Source: a virus. Taken from it: 64,000 nt of DNA. The notes beneath the pieces were generated by a model. It did no database searches. It was not told where the DNA came from and saw only the letters and a list, made by a program, of their open reading frames with translations. The DNA lies in IMG/VR virus record IMGVR_UViG_3300013004_000026, positions 32,001 to 96,000 of that record. The stretch is one strand, 5' to 3'. Shown one piece after another: positions 54,541-63,979 of this stretch. Position 1 is the first letter of the stretch; the number at the start of each line of letters is the position of its first letter. A program made the translations under genes and the position numbers.

Positions 54541-55914
54541 TTACATTTTGGCCCTGAGCTTGTAGCGTTGTATTTTGCCTGTTTGGGTGCGCGGCAGCTG
54601 ATCTATAATTGCCATTTCTTTCACGTGCTGGTGCACCAGTTCATGACTCACTGTTTGGTCTGGCGTTGGCACAATATATGCCTTGAGTCTAGCATGTCCA
54701 TTGTCCTGCACTTGCCCTACCACCACGGTTTCCTGCACACCTGGTATATTCAACAAGGCCTGCTCGATCGCTGACAGGTCAACATAGTTACCATTAACTT
54801 TGATTACATCGCTAGCACGACCCAGGAAATATAAATTGCCAGCTTGATCTTGTTCCACAATGTCGCCTGTGGGCATCCACTCGCCAAATTGTTTTGCACT
54901 CCAATGCTTGTCATGCCAATAATACAGTCCGGCAGTGGGCGCTTGAATGTACAGGTGTCCGTCTCGTATGTCAATTTCATACCCGGGGATCACCCGACCA
55001 ATTGAATGTACTGGTGCATCGCCACTGTTGTAGGCCAAAGCTCCGGCAATTTCTGTGCTGCCATAAAGATTATGAATGTCAATGCCAGTGATTGTTTTCC
55101 AGCGATCATAAATGGTTGCTGACAATTTATCTGCTCCAGAAATGCATTTGCGCAAACAGTGTCCTTGCAGATTTTGTTCGCTCAGCTTGCCATACAACAC
55201 CGGAATCATGATTAAAAATGTCACTTGCTTTGATACCACAAGATTGGCTATGGTAGTTGGCACAAAAATACCAGGGTGCAAAATCACAGTGGCGCCAGCA
55301 AACAGCGTGGCCCAGAGATTGAACATGCCAAAACTGTAAAACAGCTTGGCAGCATTGAAAGTTCTGTCTTTACTAGTGTACCCCAGATGCGGACCTGTCA
55401 CTGTGCCAATGATATAAGGTGTGGCCTGTCTATGAACCACGGCTTTGGGATGCCCGGTAGTGCCTGAAGTGTACATGAATATACAGGCTGCATCTCTATG
55501 TGACTTGTAACCTGCCACAGGTGCATGTTCGTATGATATCAATGACTTGTTCATTGAATAATCTAGGCCTAGTTCTAGGTCATTTTCTTTTACTACCATA
55601 ACAGCACCTGAGTGCTGTATACAGTAACACAAGGAGTCCTTGTTGGCTCGTGGATCCAACGGCACCGCTACCATGCCGCCGTAGATCACAGCTAGCATCA
55701 GCGCAACAGTTTCGGCTGAATCTTTCATTACAATGGCTACTCGTTGTTCAGGCTGAATGCCCAGGGCCTGTAGCCATGCAGCCAGTTGACCCACACGCTG
55801 TTCTAGTTCAGCATAGGTCCAGATTTGTTCTGCATCTTCAATGGCTATGGCTGCAGGATTAGATGTTTTGAAAAGTTCAACAACAAAATTAAATTGATCA
55901 GGTATGGTTTGCAT
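54541..55914 (-). CDS. Adenylate-forming acyl/aryl-CoA ligase (benzoate-CoA-ligase-like)
   Basis: YTSGTTGHPKAV, AAKLFYSFG, YGSTE, TGD, GRASD and LPRTQTGKIQR. Confidence 0.88.
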   Translation of the reverse strand: MQTIPDQFNFVVELFKTSNPAAIAIEDAEQIWTYAELEQRVGQLAAWLQALGIQPEQRVAIVMKDSAETVALMLAVIYGGMVAVPLDPRANKDSLCYCIQHSGAVMVVKENDLELGLDYSMNKSLISYEHAPVAGYKSHRDAACIFMYTSGTTGHPKAVVHRQATPYIIGTVTGPHLGYTSKDRTFNAAKLFYSFGMFNLWATLFAGATVILHPGIFVPTTIANLVVSKQVTFLIMIPVLYGKLSEQNLQGHCLRKCISGADKLSATIYDRWKTITGIDIHNLYGSTEIAGALAYNSGDAPVHSIGRVIPGYEIDIRDGHLYIQAPTAGLYYWHDKHWSAKQFGEWMPTGDIVEQDQAGNLYFLGRASDVIKVNGNYVDLSAIEQALLNIPGVQETVVVGQVQDNGHARLKAYIVPTPDQTVSHELVHQHVKEMAIIDQLPRTQTGKIQRYKLRAKM

Positions 55915-55926
55915 ACCTGTATTTAA

Positions 55927-57081
55927 TTAGTGGAACATCAGGAAACTATTAATCACATCCAAACGATTGGCAGCTCGATCACCGTGCCCTGCTGGGAATA
56001 TGACCACATTCCATTTGGGTTTGGGCCCTTCTGGAACAGTCAACATCTGATCATAGGTAATGATAGTGTCTGCATCCAGTTTGTGCATGGAAGCAAGTTT
56101 TTGTTTGAATTCTTCCCAGGCTTCGGGGCTGGCAACCTGTGTACGACCTTTTTCGTCTTTCACATACTTGCCCTTGGCATCGGTTACAAACAAAGTACGG
56201 AACATGTCCTTGGGCACAGTGATTGCATCCTTGACCACGTTGCCAGCCTGCTTGTGTACTGCCACCTTCTTGACTTCACGACTTTGAGAGCCCGAACTGA
56301 AATTCACAATAAAGTTGGCAGGCTTGTTGCCCACTGCCACATCGCCCATTTTGGTATAGGCATAGAACTTTACATCAGGATTGTTGTTGGCCACACTGTA
56401 GGCCAAGTCTAGGTATTCTTTTGAAAAGAAATCACCAGCATCATGCCAACGCACTACCAGTCTAATACTGTGCTTGTCTGTTTTGCCTTTGAGTGTTTTG
56501 ACTTCACGATCCACCATGGCCATATAACCTTCTGGGTCGTTTACCAAAAAGTTTAGAGCTTGTGCAGCACTCATTGAGCTGGCTGGAAACATCACATAAC
56601 CGCCTTTTCTAGCATAACAAAACAGTTGGCATTCACCTGCACCCGGGCAGGTTGTTATCTCAACAAAGTCGCCATTGCTTTCATCTACTACAATACCTGA
56701 CAGTGCTGGCAAAGTGAGGTCGTATACAATTTCGCCTTCTGTACGACTCTTTTCCATCTTGGCATTGGTGCCCAGGATCTTGGAAGGGCGTTTCATGATC
56801 TGTTGAGCCAGGTCGTCTAGATCCCATTTGTCGTCTGGATTATCGCTTTGTGTGATAGCTTTGATATTGCTACCATGAACAATTGGAGCAAACCTGTCGC
56901 GTTTGGTTTTGGTGCCAGTTTTGATACGATCAGCATAGCCTTGTAATTCGTCACGACTCATACGACGCTGCGGAGCATCTAGTTTAAGAGTTTCTTCAAC
57001 ATCTTGATCTTCGATGTTCAAAGCCTGCACCTGGAAACCGCCCAGCGTTCTTGTTTCGTTTACTAATTCATTGTATCTCAT
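55927..57081 (-). CDS. GP88-like (radical-SAM-related) protein with a capsid-targeting-like leader (start re-assigned to 57081)
   Basis: MRYNELVNE leader; TCPGAGECQLFCYA, VRWHDAGDF and FYAYTK motifs; ATGA coupling. Confidence 0.7.
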   Translation of the reverse strand: MRYNELVNETRTLGGFQVQALNIEDQDVEETLKLDAPQRRMSRDELQGYADRIKTGTKTKRDRFAPIVHGSNIKAITQSDNPDDKWDLDDLAQQIMKRPSKILGTNAKMEKSRTEGEIVYDLTLPALSGIVVDESNGDFVEITTCPGAGECQLFCYARKGGYVMFPASSMSAAQALNFLVNDPEGYMAMVDREVKTLKGKTDKHSIRLVVRWHDAGDFFSKEYLDLAYSVANNNPDVKFYAYTKMGDVAVGNKPANFIVNFSSGSQSREVKKVAVHKQAGNVVKDAITVPKDMFRTLFVTDAKGKYVKDEKGRTQVASPEAWEEFKQKLASMHKLDADTIITYDQMLTVPEGPKPKWNVVIFPAGHGDRAANRLDVINSFLMFH

Positions 57082-57278
57082 TTTTGTCTTCCTGACTTCA
57101 TGTTTGCACACCAATGGTACATCTTGCCTTTTTCACCACCGTGCTTTTTAGCCTTGGCTCTGAGACTGGTCACACTGCCATCACAGCTGGCACCTGAGCG
57201 TTTTACACGACCAGGACGACTCTTGCCTTTGACCTTGCCGTCGGCAAAGTTTTCAGTGATAATTTCATTTATTTTCAT
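57078..57278 (-). CDS. Small basic putative head-internal protein
   Basis: MKINEIITE leader followed by a K/R/G-rich body. Confidence 0.6.
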   Translation of the reverse strand: MKINEIITENFADGKVKGKSRPGRVKRSGASCDGSVTSLRAKAKKHGGEKGKMYHWCANMKSGRQK

Positions 57279-58105
57279 TATTGTACATAGTCCATGAGAT
57301 TCACATTCTGACTGTTTTCAAGGTATTCGCGAATGTCATATTTAATATCAGTATTTCCGTATAGCGGATACTCTTTCCAGATCTGAACACCTTCTAAAAA
57401 ACTGCGATTGAATGCAGCAATTACTTCTTGTACATATTTTTCTGAGGTTGGCATTAATGTACGACGACTGCCTGATTGTCTGCGACGCAGCCACAGTTCT
57501 AGATCCTGTGCAATCACCTTGCCATTGGGACGATCACTAAACAGGTCGTCATCGTCTGTGTCTTCGCCCAGTGCTCGTACCTCAGCATAGGCCTGCTGTA
57601 TGAGCTTGGTTAACAAACTGCCCAGGTTGTATTCCATGGATTGAGCACAGTCGTACTGTATTTCTTCAATTTTACTGATATCATCCTCATCATACACTTC
57701 CATGAGCATTTCTTCTACATAAGCCCATAGTTCGCTTTCTGCACGAACTTCTGGAATAAAGTCCATGAGTATGTCGCCCAACCGATCTTCGTCCTGGATT
57801 ATCTCAGGCTCAGCAGCTAGAGTGTTCATGATACCAGGTAGTACCTGCACAGCTTCACGAGTGATCATCTGGTCAGCTAGTTCGTACACCTCTTCATTGC
57901 CACGAAATACTCTGTTAGCAGCAGCAAGGTCGCTGGAGATAGCACGAATAGTTATACCAGCATTGCTGCCCAGACCCTGAATGATGTCTTGAATCATTTC
58001 TGGTATGTTGGCATTAAAGGTAGCGCGGCGAATGTCACGGCCCACACGCTCGCTGTTGCCAAACATGTCGTTATCGTCATTTTCTAATAGTTCGTTGTAT
58101 CTCAT
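57278..58105 (-). CDS. Acidic modular protein, 2 DDxLF modules (start re-assigned to 58105)
   Basis: MRYNELLENDDNDMFG and LGEDTDDDDLFS; ATGA coupling. Confidence 0.7.
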   Translation of the reverse strand: MRYNELLENDDNDMFGNSERVGRDIRRATFNANIPEMIQDIIQGLGSNAGITIRAISSDLAAANRVFRGNEEVYELADQMITREAVQVLPGIMNTLAAEPEIIQDEDRLGDILMDFIPEVRAESELWAYVEEMLMEVYDEDDISKIEEIQYDCAQSMEYNLGSLLTKLIQQAYAEVRALGEDTDDDDLFSDRPNGKVIAQDLELWLRRRQSGSRRTLMPTSEKYVQEVIAAFNRSFLEGVQIWKEYPLYGNTDIKYDIREYLENSQNVNLMDYVQ

Positions 58106-60219
58106 TTCAGCTTCTTCACATACTGGTCCTGGCCAATAGCGTCTTGTGCATCGTGGCTGTCTTCTTCTGGCCAACAGTAGATATACTGTCCTGCAAAGTC
58201 TTTTACCAGCATCCAGCGAATGCCTGCGGCAGTGAACATGTGTGTTTGTGCTTTATATCCTGGCATGACATTTTCAAAGTCAATGTCGCCTGGGCCTAGA
58301 TCTCGTCCGTAGTCTTTAAGGAAGCCAGCCACTGCATTTACTTCTGCTGAACTGTTGGGTCCTTGCCCGCCTAGATTGGCCACCACATGTATGCGCTTGG
58401 TAGGTGTCATGGTTAGACTGCCAAACAGGCTCTTGCCCAGCTGGCGAATTTGATCTGCCATATTGCCCGGCAGGTTGGCCACTTGATGGAAGTCAGGATT
58501 CTGTACACCTGCTGCTTGCAGTGCTTGTCCTGCCACAGCTGGCAAGTTGGCTGTGTTCACTTCCACGCTAGGCAACTGCTCAGGTGGTTCCTCATCTGGA
58601 TATGCTTCTAAATCACGATCAACTTCAATGTTGCGCAGTTTACCCAGCATGTCTGCCATGTCGTCACTGCCAATGCCTGCGGTCCGGCTCAAGGTATCTT
58701 TTTGCTTGGCCTTTTTAATATTAACCTTGGGTTCATCCCCCAAGCCTGCTTTCTTTTTAAGATCGTCCAATGGATCTGTTCGTGCCAGTGGATGATCTTG
58801 ATCCTGTTGAAAAGGAATATCAAACTTGATATCAGGCTTGGTCTTGGTTGTGGTCTTGCGTGGACGCTCTGGAGGCTCTTCAAGTTCTGCTTCTCCTAAT
58901 TTTTCCCACGAGTCATTTGTGCTGGTATCGCCCGATGGATCTGTGTTCCATGCATCACATACTTCTTCATATGCGCCAAATAGATCACCCATTTCATCAT
59001 CATCAACACCATATTCGGCTTGCATTTGGTCATCATACTCGTCAAACCTTGAAGTAACTTGCAGTGCCTGTTTCAAAGTTAGCTTATGGCTCAAAGCAAA
59101 TTCAGCTATGGCACGAAAATTATATCTATTAGGATCCACACGGCTCCACAGGTATAGTGCCTGTGCTGTTTTTGGTGGTGTTTGAGCAGTGCCAAACAGC
59201 TCATCATCTGACTCTGCATCTGCTTCTGTTACACTTTCAGAAGGATTGGCTCCAGTAATACTCACAGACGCCTTTTTACCCTTGTTACGCAACGATCTTG
59301 CAATATTCTCTGCTTGTTGTTTGTCAGCAAATACTTTCCAGGTACGGCCATCTATAACCACTGCATAGTTATTTTGTTCTTCTTGGCCATAACCTTCATC
59401 GTCTTCGCGTTCACGACGTCCGCCTAGACTAGGTGCAGTTGGACTTGCAAAACCATGACTGTACCCGCGGTTGCCTTCTAAATGTAATTTCTTCATGTTT
59501 CTTGCAACTTCGCCCGGGCGCACATCCTTGGTCAAGCTCATGCTGTAGCGAGGATCATTCTTTTGTTTTTTGCTGGCAACTACACCAACCCCTGCGGCAT
59601 CTTCGGACATGCTTCTGGAAGGCCCGTATACAAATGCTTTTGGATTAAGTCCGTACTTGTCTGCAACAGCGGCAATAAATGATTCCACTTTGCTATTTGG
59701 AATCTGTGCGCCAACTTTCTTTTGAATTGGCATGTTGTTTTTGCCTTTGCCTTTGATATAGATATCAACTAACTGGTCTTTGGTAATGATAGCACCTTCG
59801 CCCATGCCTTGTTCACCAATGTATGCATACACATCACTGGCAATTTTTTCCAGCTCAGACAGTGCTCTACTGACCTTTTGCACAGGCTCCTTGTAGGCAA
59901 AATCTTTGATAGGATCATCGCTCATCTGATCATCATACTTGTCAAACAGTTTTGCAAACATCTTGGCATTGGAAAAAATAGCATCAATACCAAGGTCGTC
60001 TGCTTCTTCGGTTATGCTGTTATATGCTGCTTGTAGACGCTGATGCAGTTTGTCACGCATGCTTTTGTCACCAAACAGGTCAGCATCTGTATCAGTGCTT
60101 TCATTCTTGTTACGGCCTGCGCAATGCGCTCGTTGGCTGAAGCCCTTGGGGCTGGCACAGTTGATACTTTTCTTGTATTTCTGGCTCCACTCGTCGTTTA
60201 GGAAATCTTTGCTTTTCAT
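58102..60219 (-). CDS. Modular polyprotein-like putative head-internal protein
   Basis: 705 aa; KNESTDTDADLFG and VTEADAESDDELFG, plus further [ILVM]xE boundaries (MGE, MSE, LGE). Confidence 0.7.
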   Translation of the reverse strand: MKSKDFLNDEWSQKYKKSINCASPKGFSQRAHCAGRNKNESTDTDADLFGDKSMRDKLHQRLQAAYNSITEEADDLGIDAIFSNAKMFAKLFDKYDDQMSDDPIKDFAYKEPVQKVSRALSELEKIASDVYAYIGEQGMGEGAIITKDQLVDIYIKGKGKNNMPIQKKVGAQIPNSKVESFIAAVADKYGLNPKAFVYGPSRSMSEDAAGVGVVASKKQKNDPRYSMSLTKDVRPGEVARNMKKLHLEGNRGYSHGFASPTAPSLGGRREREDDEGYGQEEQNNYAVVIDGRTWKVFADKQQAENIARSLRNKGKKASVSITGANPSESVTEADAESDDELFGTAQTPPKTAQALYLWSRVDPNRYNFRAIAEFALSHKLTLKQALQVTSRFDEYDDQMQAEYGVDDDEMGDLFGAYEEVCDAWNTDPSGDTSTNDSWEKLGEAELEEPPERPRKTTTKTKPDIKFDIPFQQDQDHPLARTDPLDDLKKKAGLGDEPKVNIKKAKQKDTLSRTAGIGSDDMADMLGKLRNIEVDRDLEAYPDEEPPEQLPSVEVNTANLPAVAGQALQAAGVQNPDFHQVANLPGNMADQIRQLGKSLFGSLTMTPTKRIHVVANLGGQGPNSSAEVNAVAGFLKDYGRDLGPGDIDFENVMPGYKAQTHMFTAAGIRWMLVKDFAGQYIYCWPEEDSHDAQDAIGQDQYVKKLK

Positions 60220-61241
60220 TTCAGTCCACCTGTAAAATCTCGTACTGCGTTTTGGAACCAGTCTTCGCTTTCTATATCATCGTCGTTCTTGAATCGTTCC
60301 CATGCATCTGTGAGTTCATGGAACTGCCCATTATCCAACATCCAGCCAAAATCGTTCAAGCCTTCCATGCCAGCAAATTCACGAATAATGATGTCAACCA
60401 CAAACGCCTGTCTAAATGGCTTTTTGGTGATGCGTACCACTTGATCAAACTGAGCATCTGTGTCACCTGCTTCTTGGTATTGTTTGTATTCTGTTCGTAT
60501 GTCAGGCACGCTCCAGCTCTGTTCCAGTTGGTTCAATATCTGTTTACCAACCTGATAGATCATGCCTTTCGCGCCTGCAGGCTGTGCACCAAACAGTTCG
60601 TCGTCATGGTCTTCAACAGCTTCATTGATAATATGTTCTGGTTTGACCTGATGTGGACTGATGTTCTTTTCCAAAGGCCAATCCACATTCTTGAACTTTA
60701 CTTGTACTACCAAGCGACCACTGGGTGTGAGTCTAACCACCTTCCCCTTGTAGTATTTGCCGTTGTCCCACTTGACCATGAGTCGGGTACCAGGCTGTAT
60801 GTTCAATGCATCACGCTGTGCTGTGCGACGAATGGTTTTACCTCGGAGTTCATGCCGGCGGTCTAGCTTAGGACTGGTGGAGAACAGGTCGTCATCATCT
60901 GCGCTTTCTGGAATTTGTTTCACATAGTCGCGAAAGTCCATGTCAAATTCTATGTCTATGACATCATCCACTGCACCTTTCCAGCTTCTATCTAGGCTGC
61001 GATAAACTTTCACTCCCATGGCCATGCTTTGATTAAAAGCGTCTGCTATGTACCGGTAGTTACTGGCTTGTTTGGCAAACTCAGCAGCATTTTCTAAATC
61101 GCCAAGGCCACGCTCTTCATCTGATACACGCTGGTCTTCTTCACTCTGTGCCAACAGAGCATTGGCAATGCGATGATGCAGACCGCGACCAAACAGGTCA
61201 TCGTCATCATCCTGGCTCTCAATGATCTCGTTATAGCGCAT
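60216..61241 (-). CDS. Modular protein, 3 DDxLF modules including a Tudor/SH3-like one (start re-assigned to 61241)
   Basis: MRYNEIIESQDDDDDLFG, IPESADDDDLFS and INEAVEDHDDELFG. Confidence 0.7.
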   Translation of the reverse strand: MRYNEIIESQDDDDDLFGRGLHHRIANALLAQSEEDQRVSDEERGLGDLENAAEFAKQASNYRYIADAFNQSMAMGVKVYRSLDRSWKGAVDDVIDIEFDMDFRDYVKQIPESADDDDLFSTSPKLDRRHELRGKTIRRTAQRDALNIQPGTRLMVKWDNGKYYKGKVVRLTPSGRLVVQVKFKNVDWPLEKNISPHQVKPEHIINEAVEDHDDELFGAQPAGAKGMIYQVGKQILNQLEQSWSVPDIRTEYKQYQEAGDTDAQFDQVVRITKKPFRQAFVVDIIIREFAGMEGLNDFGWMLDNGQFHELTDAWERFKNDDDIESEDWFQNAVRDFTGGLK

Positions 61242-62706
61242 GGCGGTCCTCGTTGGATTCGTCGCTTTCATACAGTTGATCATGAACCAATTCATTTAGT
61301 TCGCCGCTGTCATGATACATGTCATTGAGTTGGTCTAACTGTTCGTCAGTTAGTGGTTTGCCGTCCTGAGTTTCTGCATACACAATATGTGCATCCACAA
61401 AGTCAGGATAGTCTCTGCTATCAATGCCGTCTATTTCAATGCTGCGGCGGTTAATGTTTTCATGCCAGCGACGCCCAAACAGTTCGTCGTCATCTGTTTC
61501 TCTTAATCGGCTGCTACGATCCAAGTGTAGTATCAGATCATGTTCGCCACCACTGATACCAACCACACGAAAATTTTTGTGGTCTTCAATATAGTGATTT
61601 ATTATATCAACATCTTGCTCGGGATCATCACCATAAGAAAATCCAAGTGCTTGTAACTGATCTTCGTCATACTCATTGAATACATCACCAAATCTTATCC
61701 TAGGTGCTGCAAACAAGTCATCGTCATCATTGCTTTCGTCAATCGGGTTATCAGTTATTGGAAAATGCGCTACAGGCACTCCACTGTCGTTGTTCCCACG
61801 CTGTTTGTACACCGTGATGAAATCGTCATCACCCCAGCCATCTTCTAGATATATCGGAACTTGTTTTTTGGCATGTGCTATTGCTTCGCGTATGTCACTG
61901 AACATGCCAAGTATTTCGTCGTCGGGTGCCGAGACTACAAATACCTTTTGTTCACCATCACCAAACAGTTCATCGTCTGACTCAGCGCTTTCATTCATGC
62001 CATGTTCGTCAAACAGTTGCTCTAGACTGATGTCTGTTTCTTCTTCTAGCTCTGCGGCAATACGCTCCCACCACCAGTCTTCACTGTTGTCCTGCCACAT
62101 GATCAGTCCGGCCTGCATGCCCTGTCTAATAAAAGCATCTGCTACCTGTTTCAGTGTCTTGGCTTCTTCGCGAATGTCTTCTAGGTCGCTGTCGTATTCT
62201 TCGCCGTCACTTGGATCCAGGCCCGATATCTCTGCAGGATTGTTGCGCATGGTGTTGGCAAAACCCATGAGCCACTGTCCTATGCGACGGTGTACAGGAT
62301 CACCAAACAGTTCGTCATCGTCACTTTCGTCTAGTATGTTTGAAAATGGTGGCGGCACACGCACACTGAGCCACTCGGAACTGGTAAACTTGCATTCAAA
62401 GCCTTGACTTTCTAGCTCTGCTTTGATCTCATGTGCCACAGGTGGAGCCTGTGGCAGCTCATCATCTGGTCCTCTGTCATAGTTGCCAAACCAGAATGTG
62501 GCTGTGCCTCGTGCTGCTTTGGTAGGCTGTGCGCTCACCCGAACCTTAACTCCAAACTGATTCTTGGCTATGTCCCGTACACGATGCACTGTGCGCTGGT
62601 ACGGATTTTGTATCTGTTTGATTGATTGTTTTATGTTAGTAGACAGCTCACCTGGCTTACTAAACAAGTCATCGTCTGTGTTTTCAATCAGTTCACTGTA
62701 GCGCAT
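61231..62706 (-). CDS. Modular acidic protein, 5 DDxLF modules
   Basis: MRYSELIENTDDDLFS, LDESDDDELFG, MNESAESDDELFG, IDESNDDDDLFA and LRETDDDELFG. Confidence 0.75.
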   Translation of the reverse strand: MRYSELIENTDDDLFSKPGELSTNIKQSIKQIQNPYQRTVHRVRDIAKNQFGVKVRVSAQPTKAARGTATFWFGNYDRGPDDELPQAPPVAHEIKAELESQGFECKFTSSEWLSVRVPPPFSNILDESDDDELFGDPVHRRIGQWLMGFANTMRNNPAEISGLDPSDGEEYDSDLEDIREEAKTLKQVADAFIRQGMQAGLIMWQDNSEDWWWERIAAELEEETDISLEQLFDEHGMNESAESDDELFGDGEQKVFVVSAPDDEILGMFSDIREAIAHAKKQVPIYLEDGWGDDDFITVYKQRGNNDSGVPVAHFPITDNPIDESNDDDDLFAAPRIRFGDVFNEYDEDQLQALGFSYGDDPEQDVDIINHYIEDHKNFRVVGISGGEHDLILHLDRSSRLRETDDDELFGRRWHENINRRSIEIDGIDSRDYPDFVDAHIVYAETQDGKPLTDEQLDQLNDMYHDSGELNELVHDQLYESDESNEDRHAL

Positions 62707-63979
62707 GACCCTGCTCCTGTAGTTTGGCTGTGTACTGTTTGGCCACCTGTTTCATCATGAAACGAAACAGTGGATCACGCACAGTGAGTTCAATGATGTG
62801 TGCCATTGCATCCTTGTGAATCTTCTGTCCTGATTGTACCAGAGCGTCTTTTAGTTTGGTAACCACAGTGCTTTGCTCTGCCACAGCTCGCAGAGCATCG
62901 TTGGTGCTCAACATACTTTCAATACGATCTTCATCACGAGCCAGTTCTGGTGTACCACTCAGCTGTTTCCAGAAATTGCCCATGGCCTTCACACACTGTG
63001 CCAGATAGTCACGCATGTCACCGGACAGTTCTTGTTTAACGGAATCAGGCAGTCGCACGCCGTAGCTGTCAAGACCTTTGAAACCAAATGCAATAATACG
63101 ATCAGCATACTGATCAATCAACTGGGTGGTGGCCTTCTGCACTTCAGGTGTGGCTTCAATCACAATGTTTTTGTATTCGTCGGACAACAGTGCAGGAATC
63201 ATGAACTGCTCTGCAGGCTTCTGCAGGATCTTGGTCAACACAGGAAAACGTGCCACCAATTTCTTCATACCGTTGTCACCAATCTGACGATCCTGTTCAT
63301 TCATGAACTGCTTGGTTTCAAAGTGAAACTGATACTTTTCGCCCGGATAAGCCTGCTGGCGTGGAATGATCACATACAGTGGACGATCGCCACGAGTGTA
63401 GTAATCATACATGTTGTTGTTCTTGCCTGCGGTACACCAGCGTGTGCCTTGACCGTAGTAGCAGGCAGCTTCCACATCATTGGGTACAGTAACAATCAGC
63501 TGATTGTCACGATACAGCTCTGTGGCATTTTTCTTTTCTTCTGGTTTGGATTCTGCTTCTTCGTCTGGATACTCGTCTACCACATCATAAAAAGACTCTA
63601 GATCTTTATATCGATTGAAGTCATTGCGTGGAGGTTGAATCTTTTTGCGACGTTTGAGTTTGTCAAACTTGGCAAGATAGTCTGCCAAGGTACTGGCAAC
63701 ATCTTCTAACTTGCTTTGCCCCATGGCATACAGTTTGGCAATGCTCTGACTGTATTCTTTATTGCGGGTGGGATCACCGCGTTCAATCCAGGTCAACAGA
63801 TAGTCCAGTACCTGTTCAGGATTTTTTTTCACAGTGTCTTTGATATTACCACCTGGTAACGCATTGTTATACTGTTGCACAAACCATGCATCTCTTACGG
63901 CCACTGCCAAGAGTTTTTCGCCATAGGCTGCTGCGGTCTTGCCGCGATCATATTCTAATAAAAATTCTAAACTTTTCAT
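62693..63979 (-). CDS. PcfJ-like domain protein with a capsid-targeting-like leader
   Basis: MKSLEFLLE leader; ACYYGQGTRWCTAG...KYQFHF motif. Confidence 0.55.
   Translation of the reverse strand: MKSLEFLLEYDRGKTAAAYGEKLLAVAVRDAWFVQQYNNALPGGNIKDTVKKNPEQVLDYLLTWIERGDPTRNKEYSQSIAKLYAMGQSKLEDVASTLADYLAKFDKLKRRKKIQPPRNDFNRYKDLESFYDVVDEYPDEEAESKPEEKKNATELYRDNQLIVTVPNDVEAACYYGQGTRWCTAGKNNNMYDYYTRGDRPLYVIIPRQQAYPGEKYQFHFETKQFMNEQDRQIGDNGMKKLVARFPVLTKILQKPAEQFMIPALLSDEYKNIVIEATPEVQKATTQLIDQYADRIIAFGFKGLDSYGVRLPDSVKQELSGDMRDYLAQCVKAMGNFWKQLSGTPELARDEDRIESMLSTNDALRAVAEQSTVVTKLKDALVQSGQKIHKDAMAHIIELTVRDPLFRFMMKQVAKQYTAKLQEQGHALQ

Follow-up and report, generated by a model that had tools for sequence, protein, structure and literature searches.

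The stretch of DNA considered here, called the window, comprises 64,000 nucleotides (nt) of an IMG/VR viral contig of 168,427 bp (bases 32001-96000), estimated to be 47% complete. It belongs to an uncultured, T4-related jumbo phage whose genome is incomplete. Between positions 57278 and 62706, four translationally coupled minus-strand genes, named A to D and overlapping by 4-14 nt at their stop/start junctions, encode together 1,812 residues in which a short acidic motif ending with Leu-Phe, hereafter the acidic-LF tag, is repeated. We propose that the products of these genes are probably head-packaged cargo polyproteins that are cut after Glu. This proposal is supported by indirect arguments: a leader resembling the capsid-targeting sequence (CTS) of T4, a Peptidase_S77 protease in related phages, a hydrophobic-x-Glu site in front of 97% of the tags, joints predicted to be disordered, shuffling of the modules, and homologues of these modules that exist as stand-alone proteins.

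The acidic-LF tag and its distribution

An earlier, sequence-only reading of this DNA had described twelve copies of the tag in four consecutive coupled genes, eleven of them headed by [ILVM]-x-E. We recovered every copy at the expected place on the minus strand as well as the coupling of the genes, the sole departure from [ILVM]-x-E being a K-N-E. In genes B and D, the true starts are the internal ATGs at 61241 and 58105, the N-terminus then being the same as that of gene A. The genes of the locus and the tags are the following.

62693..63979, minus strand: leader-variant gene, 428 amino acids (aa), MKSLEFLLE; first gene of the coupled block within the window
61231..62706, minus strand: polyprotein A, 491 aa; leader MRYSELIE and five tagged modules of 119, 112, 85, 79 and 88 aa
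60216..61241, minus strand: polyprotein B, 341 aa; leader MRYNEIIE and three tagged modules
58102..60219, minus strand: polyprotein C, 705 aa; N-terminal piece, degenerate tag, 292-aa module, tag, 373-aa module
57278..58105, minus strand: polyprotein D, 275 aa; leader MRYNELLE, degenerate tag, 173-aa module, tag, 94-aa module
57078..57278, minus strand: basic protein, 66 aa, no tag; leader MKINEIITE
55927..57081, minus strand: GP88-domain protein, 384 aa from ATG 57081, no tag; leader MRYNELVNE; conserved anchor of the locus
62659..62691, minus strand: tag 1, L-I-E and acidic-LF-S, directly after the leader of A
62302..62334, minus strand: tag 2, L-D-E
61960..61998, minus strand: tag 3, M-N-E
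61708..61743, minus strand: tag 4, I-D-E
61474..61506, minus strand: tag 5, L-R-E
61188..61226, minus strand: tag 6, I-I-E, directly after the leader of B
60879..60914, minus strand: tag 7, I-P-E
60588..60629, minus strand: tag 8, I-N-E
60070..60108, minus strand: tag 9, degenerate, K-N-E with an interrupted acidic run
59191..59232, minus strand: tag 10, V-T-E
58058..58090, minus strand: tag 11, degenerate, L-L-E, ending M-F-G, directly after the leader of D
57536..57571, minus strand: tag 12, L-G-E

In its strict form, defined as [DE]3[LM]F, the tag occurs ten times in the six-frame translation of the whole contig, always within the four genes; residue shuffles of the four proteins gave 0.05. 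The pattern put forward by the sequence-only reading gave 11 matches in the 116,409 residues of the contig's open reading frames (ORFs), and ten of these matches lie inside the four proteins; 2,000 residue shuffles of the same four proteins yielded on average 0.06 matches and at most two. The motif is thus real, local and far above chance. Since the Asp codons differ from one copy to another, the tag is a feature of the protein under selection and not a DNA repeat.

No cultured phage was found to carry the locus: searches of 50,697 phage records by blastn and tblastn with the locus, polyprotein A and the 373-aa module of C returned no match. Through the adjacent GP88-domain gene, 490 related loci were found in IMG/VR. 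The closest complete relative among them, G001 (354,959 bp, with terminal repeats), encodes polyproteins that are 49-88% identical to those of the window, and 17 of its 19 strict tag matches fall in the single homologous locus. A second complete relative, G003, is devoid of tags genome-wide, its protease and capsid protein being 75% and 80% identical to their counterparts. A word-based search returned 84 homologues of A with 346 strict tags, and in all 346 the residue after the Phe is G, A or S. When redundancy was removed, [ILVMFY]-x-E was found 6-12 residues before the Phe in 271 of 280 tags of the relatives, as compared with 22% at random positions of the same proteins. The hydrophobic residue in these 271 tags is mainly L (137) or I (72), followed by V (35) and M (17), the residue following the Glu is mostly N or S, and the tag always lies 1-6 residues past the Glu. 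Such a signature matches the specificity of T4-type proteases rather than the S/A-x-E of phiKZ-type phages.

A profile built from 107 internal tags was then run against 1.84 billion representative proteins. It retrieved 88 proteins at E <=0.001, nearly all of them chains with several tags (up to 13), whose leaders include variants such as MRLFDLFE, MNLFDIFE and MFIHDLFE. Six to eight weak matches contain zero or one hydrophobic-x-Glu site and are probably unrelated to the tagged chains. One chain of 1,750 aa lies in a 243-kb contig with the same synteny, namely CLP_protease, a 445-aa gene, polyproteins and GP88. Our search of the literature, including full texts, found no description of an acidic-LF tag, the queries with the tag as a string returning noise.

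Leader, protease and modules

Seven consecutive coupled genes begin with a leader resembling the CTS of T4. Genes A, B and D, the 66-aa gene and the GP88-domain gene start with a leader of the MRYNE[LI][ILV]E or MKINEIITE type, and the 428-aa gene and gene C carry variants of it; the leader thereby heads two genes past D (57078-57278 and 55927-57081), beyond the four that the sequence-only reading had considered. The homologue of the 428-aa gene also precedes the polyproteins in G001 and in a distant relative, L223, and its PHROGs matches are all of unknown function. In T4, the CTS is MKTYQEFIAE (PMC8442874), and the prohead protease gp21 cleaves after L/I-X-E and removes this sequence, a processing that is blocked when the Glu at the cut position is replaced by Asp (PMC9026906). 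The likeness reaches Q-E-F-I-x-E in the relatives, which have about ten leader-bearing genes per genome (for example MRAQEFITE and MRAREFIAE). As for T4-type capsid-targeted cargo, the leader is about 8-10 residues long, CTS-like and ends with L/I-x-Glu, and from one related phage to another it stays constant while the cargo behind it is hypervariable. PA5oct encodes, between its portal and its core protein, a 73-aa protein that bears the leader MKINDIITE and is marked as structural (virion) by electrospray ionization tandem mass spectrometry.

The sequence-only reading had called for a gp21-like protease in the genome, and it is in the relatives that we found one. G001 (at 236195-236833) and two further relatives, for each of which CheckV estimates a completeness of at least 95%, have a gene for a protease of the T4 gp21 type (Peptidase_S77, E 4e-28 to 6e-25; phrog_207, 5e-60), of which L5 and E7 are invariant across 38 homologues. 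Their head module follows the T4 gene order: portal, acidic core protein, protease, scaffold-like protein (366 aa with 22 L/I-x-E sites) and gp23-type capsid protein, the latter sharing 66-70% identity with its counterparts in PA5oct, Vibrio phage 2.275.O and Sinorhizobium phage Phosso. Separately, the acidic core protein, whose gene lies between those of the portal and the protease (G001 235269-236180, equivalent to L099:15269-16180; G003 223721), begins with M-N-K-[YF]-E-x-L-I-E-Y and continues with an acidic stretch that ends in L-F. This N-terminus resembles a stretched leader and tag, and may point to where the tag arose or to its partner.

We modelled residues 228-491 of A and 1-216 of B with AlphaFold2, sub-regions being folded because the repeated tag mis-registered full-length alignments built from fragments. 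In these regions the models bear out the compact domains and disordered linkers that had been anticipated, the predicted local distance difference test (pLDDT) value dropping under 50 precisely where the tags lie (model residues 92-107 and 170-185 for A; 1-18, 114-122 and 208-216 for B). The region of A is predicted to form three small alpha/beta domains. In B, the first module is modelled as a helical bundle (pLDDT 84-92), the second as a basic helix with a Tudor/SH3-like barrel (Foldseek E 0.015), and the C-terminal one comprises 134 aa. Known families were scarcely recognized: Foldseek against the PDB gave nothing below E 0.38 for modules A3-A5, the ESM Atlas no usable match for the 373-aa module, and Pfam and PHROGs a weak Tudor hint at most for the four polyproteins. 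In Pfam searches of 81 homologues, one protein had domains (Zeta_toxin and GNAT), and in those of eight long tagged chains three had cytidylyltransferase-like N-termini and nothing else was seen. The sequence-only reading held that each tag precedes a different, unrelated domain; this is mostly the case, apart from A2 and B1, which are paralogues with 31% identity.

Polyprotein C differs in that it opens with a basic Cys/His piece of 40 aa; its 373-aa module is 87% identical in G001. This piece (window 60100-60219) is basic over about 30 residues and has two Cys and a His, in the pattern W-S-Q-K-Y-K-x-S-I-N-C ... A-H-C-A-G, and recurs in at least 20 relatives, in some directly behind the leader. 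The 66-aa basic protein has a Cys...H-W-C pattern that is loosely similar. Both may be small co-packaged basic proteins.

The modules are exchanged between chains. When the proteins of three genomes were cut at the tags, they fell into about 21 module families, which appear in varying order and in different genes: 2-0-1-3-8 in A of the window, 13-14-1-3-11-8 in A of G001, 0-9-2-15-16-17-4 in B of G001 and 2-11-1-7-1-3-4 in a third lineage. An alignment of the joints shows two upstream module types paired with six downstream types, the switch falling inside the tag. In all, 141 chains gave 409 non-redundant modules with a median length of 104 aa and a median isoelectric point (pI) of 4.5, the pI being below 5 in 72% of them.

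Some of the same domains are found in tag-less relatives as separate genes with their own leader. A protein of L071, from the L-N-E of its leader to its end, aligns with polyprotein D of G001 from an internal L-N-E (residue 488) to the end (64% identity, E 5e-128), and a protein of L047 aligns from its leader cut site to an internal M-K-E joint with 82% identity. The G001 version of D reads through this tag-less L-N-E joint into an extra domain of 270 aa, and gene D of the window ends exactly where G001 continues. In stand-alone and fused forms alike, homology of the downstream domain begins at the cut motif, which is the strongest comparative argument that cutting would occur there.

A parallel can be drawn with several known systems. 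The T4 internal proteins IPI, IPII, IPIII and Alt bear a CTS and are processed by gp21, according to Mullaney and Black (1996) as reported in PMC8442874 and to the reviews PMC9026906 and PMC3012670. The present locus shares with them a short N-terminal leader ending with L/I-x-Glu, with Q-E-F-I-x-E common to the relatives, an S77 protease (in relatives), a constant leader joined to a highly variable cargo, and a predicted size of the freed proteins near that of IPI*. In T4, a single gene goes with a single leader and a single cut; by contrast, each chain of the present system comprises 2-13 modules with presumed internal cut sites, an acidic-LF tag, which T4 lacks, lies behind each of these sites, and the cargo is mostly acidic where that of T4 is basic. 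At the level of sequence, the locus would thus belong to the T4 internal-protein kind, from which it differs by its polyprotein build, its tag and its acidic cargo.

Inner-body and ejection proteins of phiKZ, 201phi2-1 and SPN3US are processed by gp175/gp245 (PMC9026906, PMC10052503). These are likewise giant phages, which pack many proteins cut after Glu, often at multiple sites. Unlike in the phiKZ group, where the site is S/A-x-E, 261 of the 271 tags have here L, I, V or M two residues before the Glu; moreover, the phiKZ group has no repeated tag, and its capsid lineage differs, the major capsid protein here being 66-70% identical to that of PA5oct-type phages.

The polyvalent proteins of phages and conjugative elements, described by Iyer, Aravind and colleagues, are reportedly chains of multi-domain effectors that are thought to travel with DNA and to be processed, and are said to have recognizable enzyme domains and often their own protease domain. 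Here, as opposed to that account, the modules almost all lack a known family (Pfam domains in one of 81 homologues) and the presumed protease is a head-maturation enzyme.

Proposed mechanism, role of the tag and rival explanations

The locus is probably the cargo cassette of a T4-related jumbo phage. The leader of 8-10 residues, of the T4 capsid-targeting type, would put the whole chain into the prohead scaffolding core. Once activated, the gp21-type prohead protease would cleave behind the Glu of every hydrophobic-x-Glu site, strip the leader and free two to five small folded proteins per chain (up to about 13 in relatives). These proteins, mostly acidic and of a size (median 104 aa) like that of T4 IPI*, would remain in the head and enter the cell along with the DNA, to act there early as effectors. 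Being located just behind each cut, the acidic-[LM]F-[GAS] tag would become the new disordered N-terminus of each freed module, that is, a handle borne by the module and not a part of the leader, and its coding sequence would double as a joint for module exchange between genes and genomes. The motif, the leader, the enrichment, the disorder at the joints, the shuffling, the protease of the relatives and the boundaries of stand-alone as against fused domains are observations; that the chains are packaged, cut and delivered, and that the tag has a role, we infer from sequence and comparison.

All the indirect tests agree with a capsid cargo cut by a T4-type prohead protease, as the sequence-only reading had suggested, the part of its proposal that found no support being the roles in mimicry discussed below; the ejection or sorting signal that it also put forward may still apply. 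Several observations nevertheless weigh against this reading. The window's own contig, incomplete as it is, contains no S77 match and no head genes, so that the protease of this phage is deduced from its relatives. No site fitting the T4-type late promoter consensus was seen near the locus, all members of the tagged family are metagenomic, and a second PA5oct gene with a similar type of leader bears no virion mark. The modules are mostly acidic (pI about 4-4.6) as opposed to the basic internal proteins of T4. Finally, joints without a tag, together with tag-less relatives whose protease is 75% identical, imply that the tag is dispensable for the presumed cutting.

The tag seems equally dispensable for the presumed targeting, since genes with a leader alone exist. 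As the tag comes behind the leader at N-termini and is never the end of a chain, it belongs to the downstream module. Its role would most likely be a shared step after cutting, such as holding the module in the head, letting it leave through the tail or docking it on a common partner. A more specific and tentative idea, possible rather than probable, is that the tag is a second-layer address, distinct from the leader, exposed by cutting and read by a single partner of the virion or the host, as well as a recombination joint; this partner could hold the cargo in the head, order its exit through the tail or dock effectors on a host hub. A complex prediction with the G001 protease and a 52-residue joint gave a score of 0.00, which speaks neither for binding nor against it, and the difference in gene content between tagged and tag-less genomes, searched for a partner of the tag, left 93 candidates of which none was singled out.

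The chains could also be packaged and cut without any later role for the tag, which would then be the P' side of a flexible, DNA-repelling linker that exposes the joints or binds an exosite of the protease. The constant position of the tag 1-6 residues past the Glu, its predicted disorder and its confinement to polyproteins, single-domain leader genes having none, all fit such a linker. We consider it rather unlikely, as the strict [LM]F followed in 346 of 346 tags by a small residue is more than a spacer requires, and as tag-less joints within the same genomes, leader-only substrates and the tag-less relatives with their closely similar protease all speak against it. An improbable alternative would be that the proteins are not cut at all and work as beads on a string, the repeated acidic-LF motifs binding one partner multivalently (hub, scaffold or condensate) in the infected cell. 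Chains whose disordered linkers carry 2-13 identical short motifs would suit this function, which leaves unexplained the Leu/Ile-x-Glu before 97% of the tags, the T4-like leader with a tag directly behind it, and the separate leader-bearing homologues whose homology runs from the cut motif on.

Two other explanations appear to us very improbable. In one of them, originally suggested by the sequence-only reading, the tag mimics a docking peptide of the replisome, be it that of the host or of the phage, and tethers the modules to this hub. An acidic run followed by a hydrophobic-Phe pair does give the tag a superficial likeness to such peptides. The C-terminal tip of the single-stranded DNA-binding protein (SSB) is an acidic run ending with Pro-Phe, with a free carboxylate at the extreme C-terminus, and the bacterial beta-clamp-binding motif is the pentapeptide QL[SD]LF, whose first residue is Gln and whose second is hydrophobic. 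The tail of the T4 polymerase, which ends L-D-F-L-F-G (PMC6212786), offers a comparable resemblance to a motif for the gp45 clamp. The defining features of these peptides, that is, their position and their Gln or hydrophobic residues, fail in the tag, which has Asp/Glu instead. The SSB tip was rejected because the tag precedes the modules and is absent from the C-terminal end of all four proteins. The beta-clamp motif was rejected on account of the Asp found four residues before the Phe in 343 of 346 tags and three before it in 317 of 346. As for the gp45 motif LDFLF, which makes contact through four hydrophobic residues (L, F, L and F), the final Leu-Phe alone is shared, its hydrophobic positions 1 and 3 being Asp/Glu in the tag. 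The polymerase tail of a relative is itself of a different form: that of G001 (DNA polymerase, 123823-126510) is F-D-S-L-F-S-F-E, like the clamp-binding tail of RB69-type polymerases.

The other one, which we judge as improbable as mimicry, would assign the processing to a nearby protease instead of the prohead protease, either a phage ClpP homologue or, in relatives, the product of an adjacent SprT-like gene. In L223, SprT-like and CLP_protease genes come before the polyprotein-GP88 block, a ClpP-like gene starts about 3 kb past the end of the window in its contig, and the ClpP of PA5oct is marked as virion-associated by mass spectrometry. This synteny may be incidental, and cutting after the Glu of L/I-x-E is a documented specificity of T4-type proteases (PMC9026906). 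We know of no such Glu specificity for ClpP or SprT.

Neighbouring genes and biological meaning

Around the four polyprotein genes, the GP88-domain protein (Pfam PF17338) is the most conserved product of the locus; it contains a C-x5-C-x3-C cluster and has no known function. Directly downstream of the cargo block lies an AMP-binding enzyme of the acyl/aryl-CoA ligase type (54541-55914), without the leader. Upstream, the ClpP homologue is found at 99119-99696 of the contig (G000), about 3-3.7 kb past the right end of the window, and is preceded by a 171-aa gene that matches in size and position the SprT-like gene of L223; the corresponding region there is L223:2304-3491, the synteny being conserved. 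All long ORFs of the window are on a single strand, and the window also encodes rIIA/rIIB and an ATP-dependent DNA ligase. Between 298 and 18113, three giant minus-strand ORFs of 2108, 1036 and 2328 aa, the first with a YHYH domain and the other two without a Pfam match, are probably fibre or host-recognition proteins.

A CTS and cutting by the prohead protease are textbook T4 biology, and this concept was already known; what is new here is the tag, the shuffling at the tag and some 400 small modules without a known family. The locus clearly illustrates how modules can be exchanged in nature at a joint that is short and conserved, in a manner similar to exon shuffling, and if the tag indeed acts as a shared recombination joint, it would let this clade assemble strings of effectors combinatorially. 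Should our proposal be true, leader, cut site and tag would make it possible to read from sequence which proteins a large clade of uncultured jumbo phages packages and injects, giving a catalogue of about 400 non-redundant small and mostly acidic proteins. The host would encounter the freed modules before any other phage protein, which would make them candidate anti-defence or takeover factors. The tag would then be a new portable element for delivery by phage heads, beside the T4 CTS already used in engineering.

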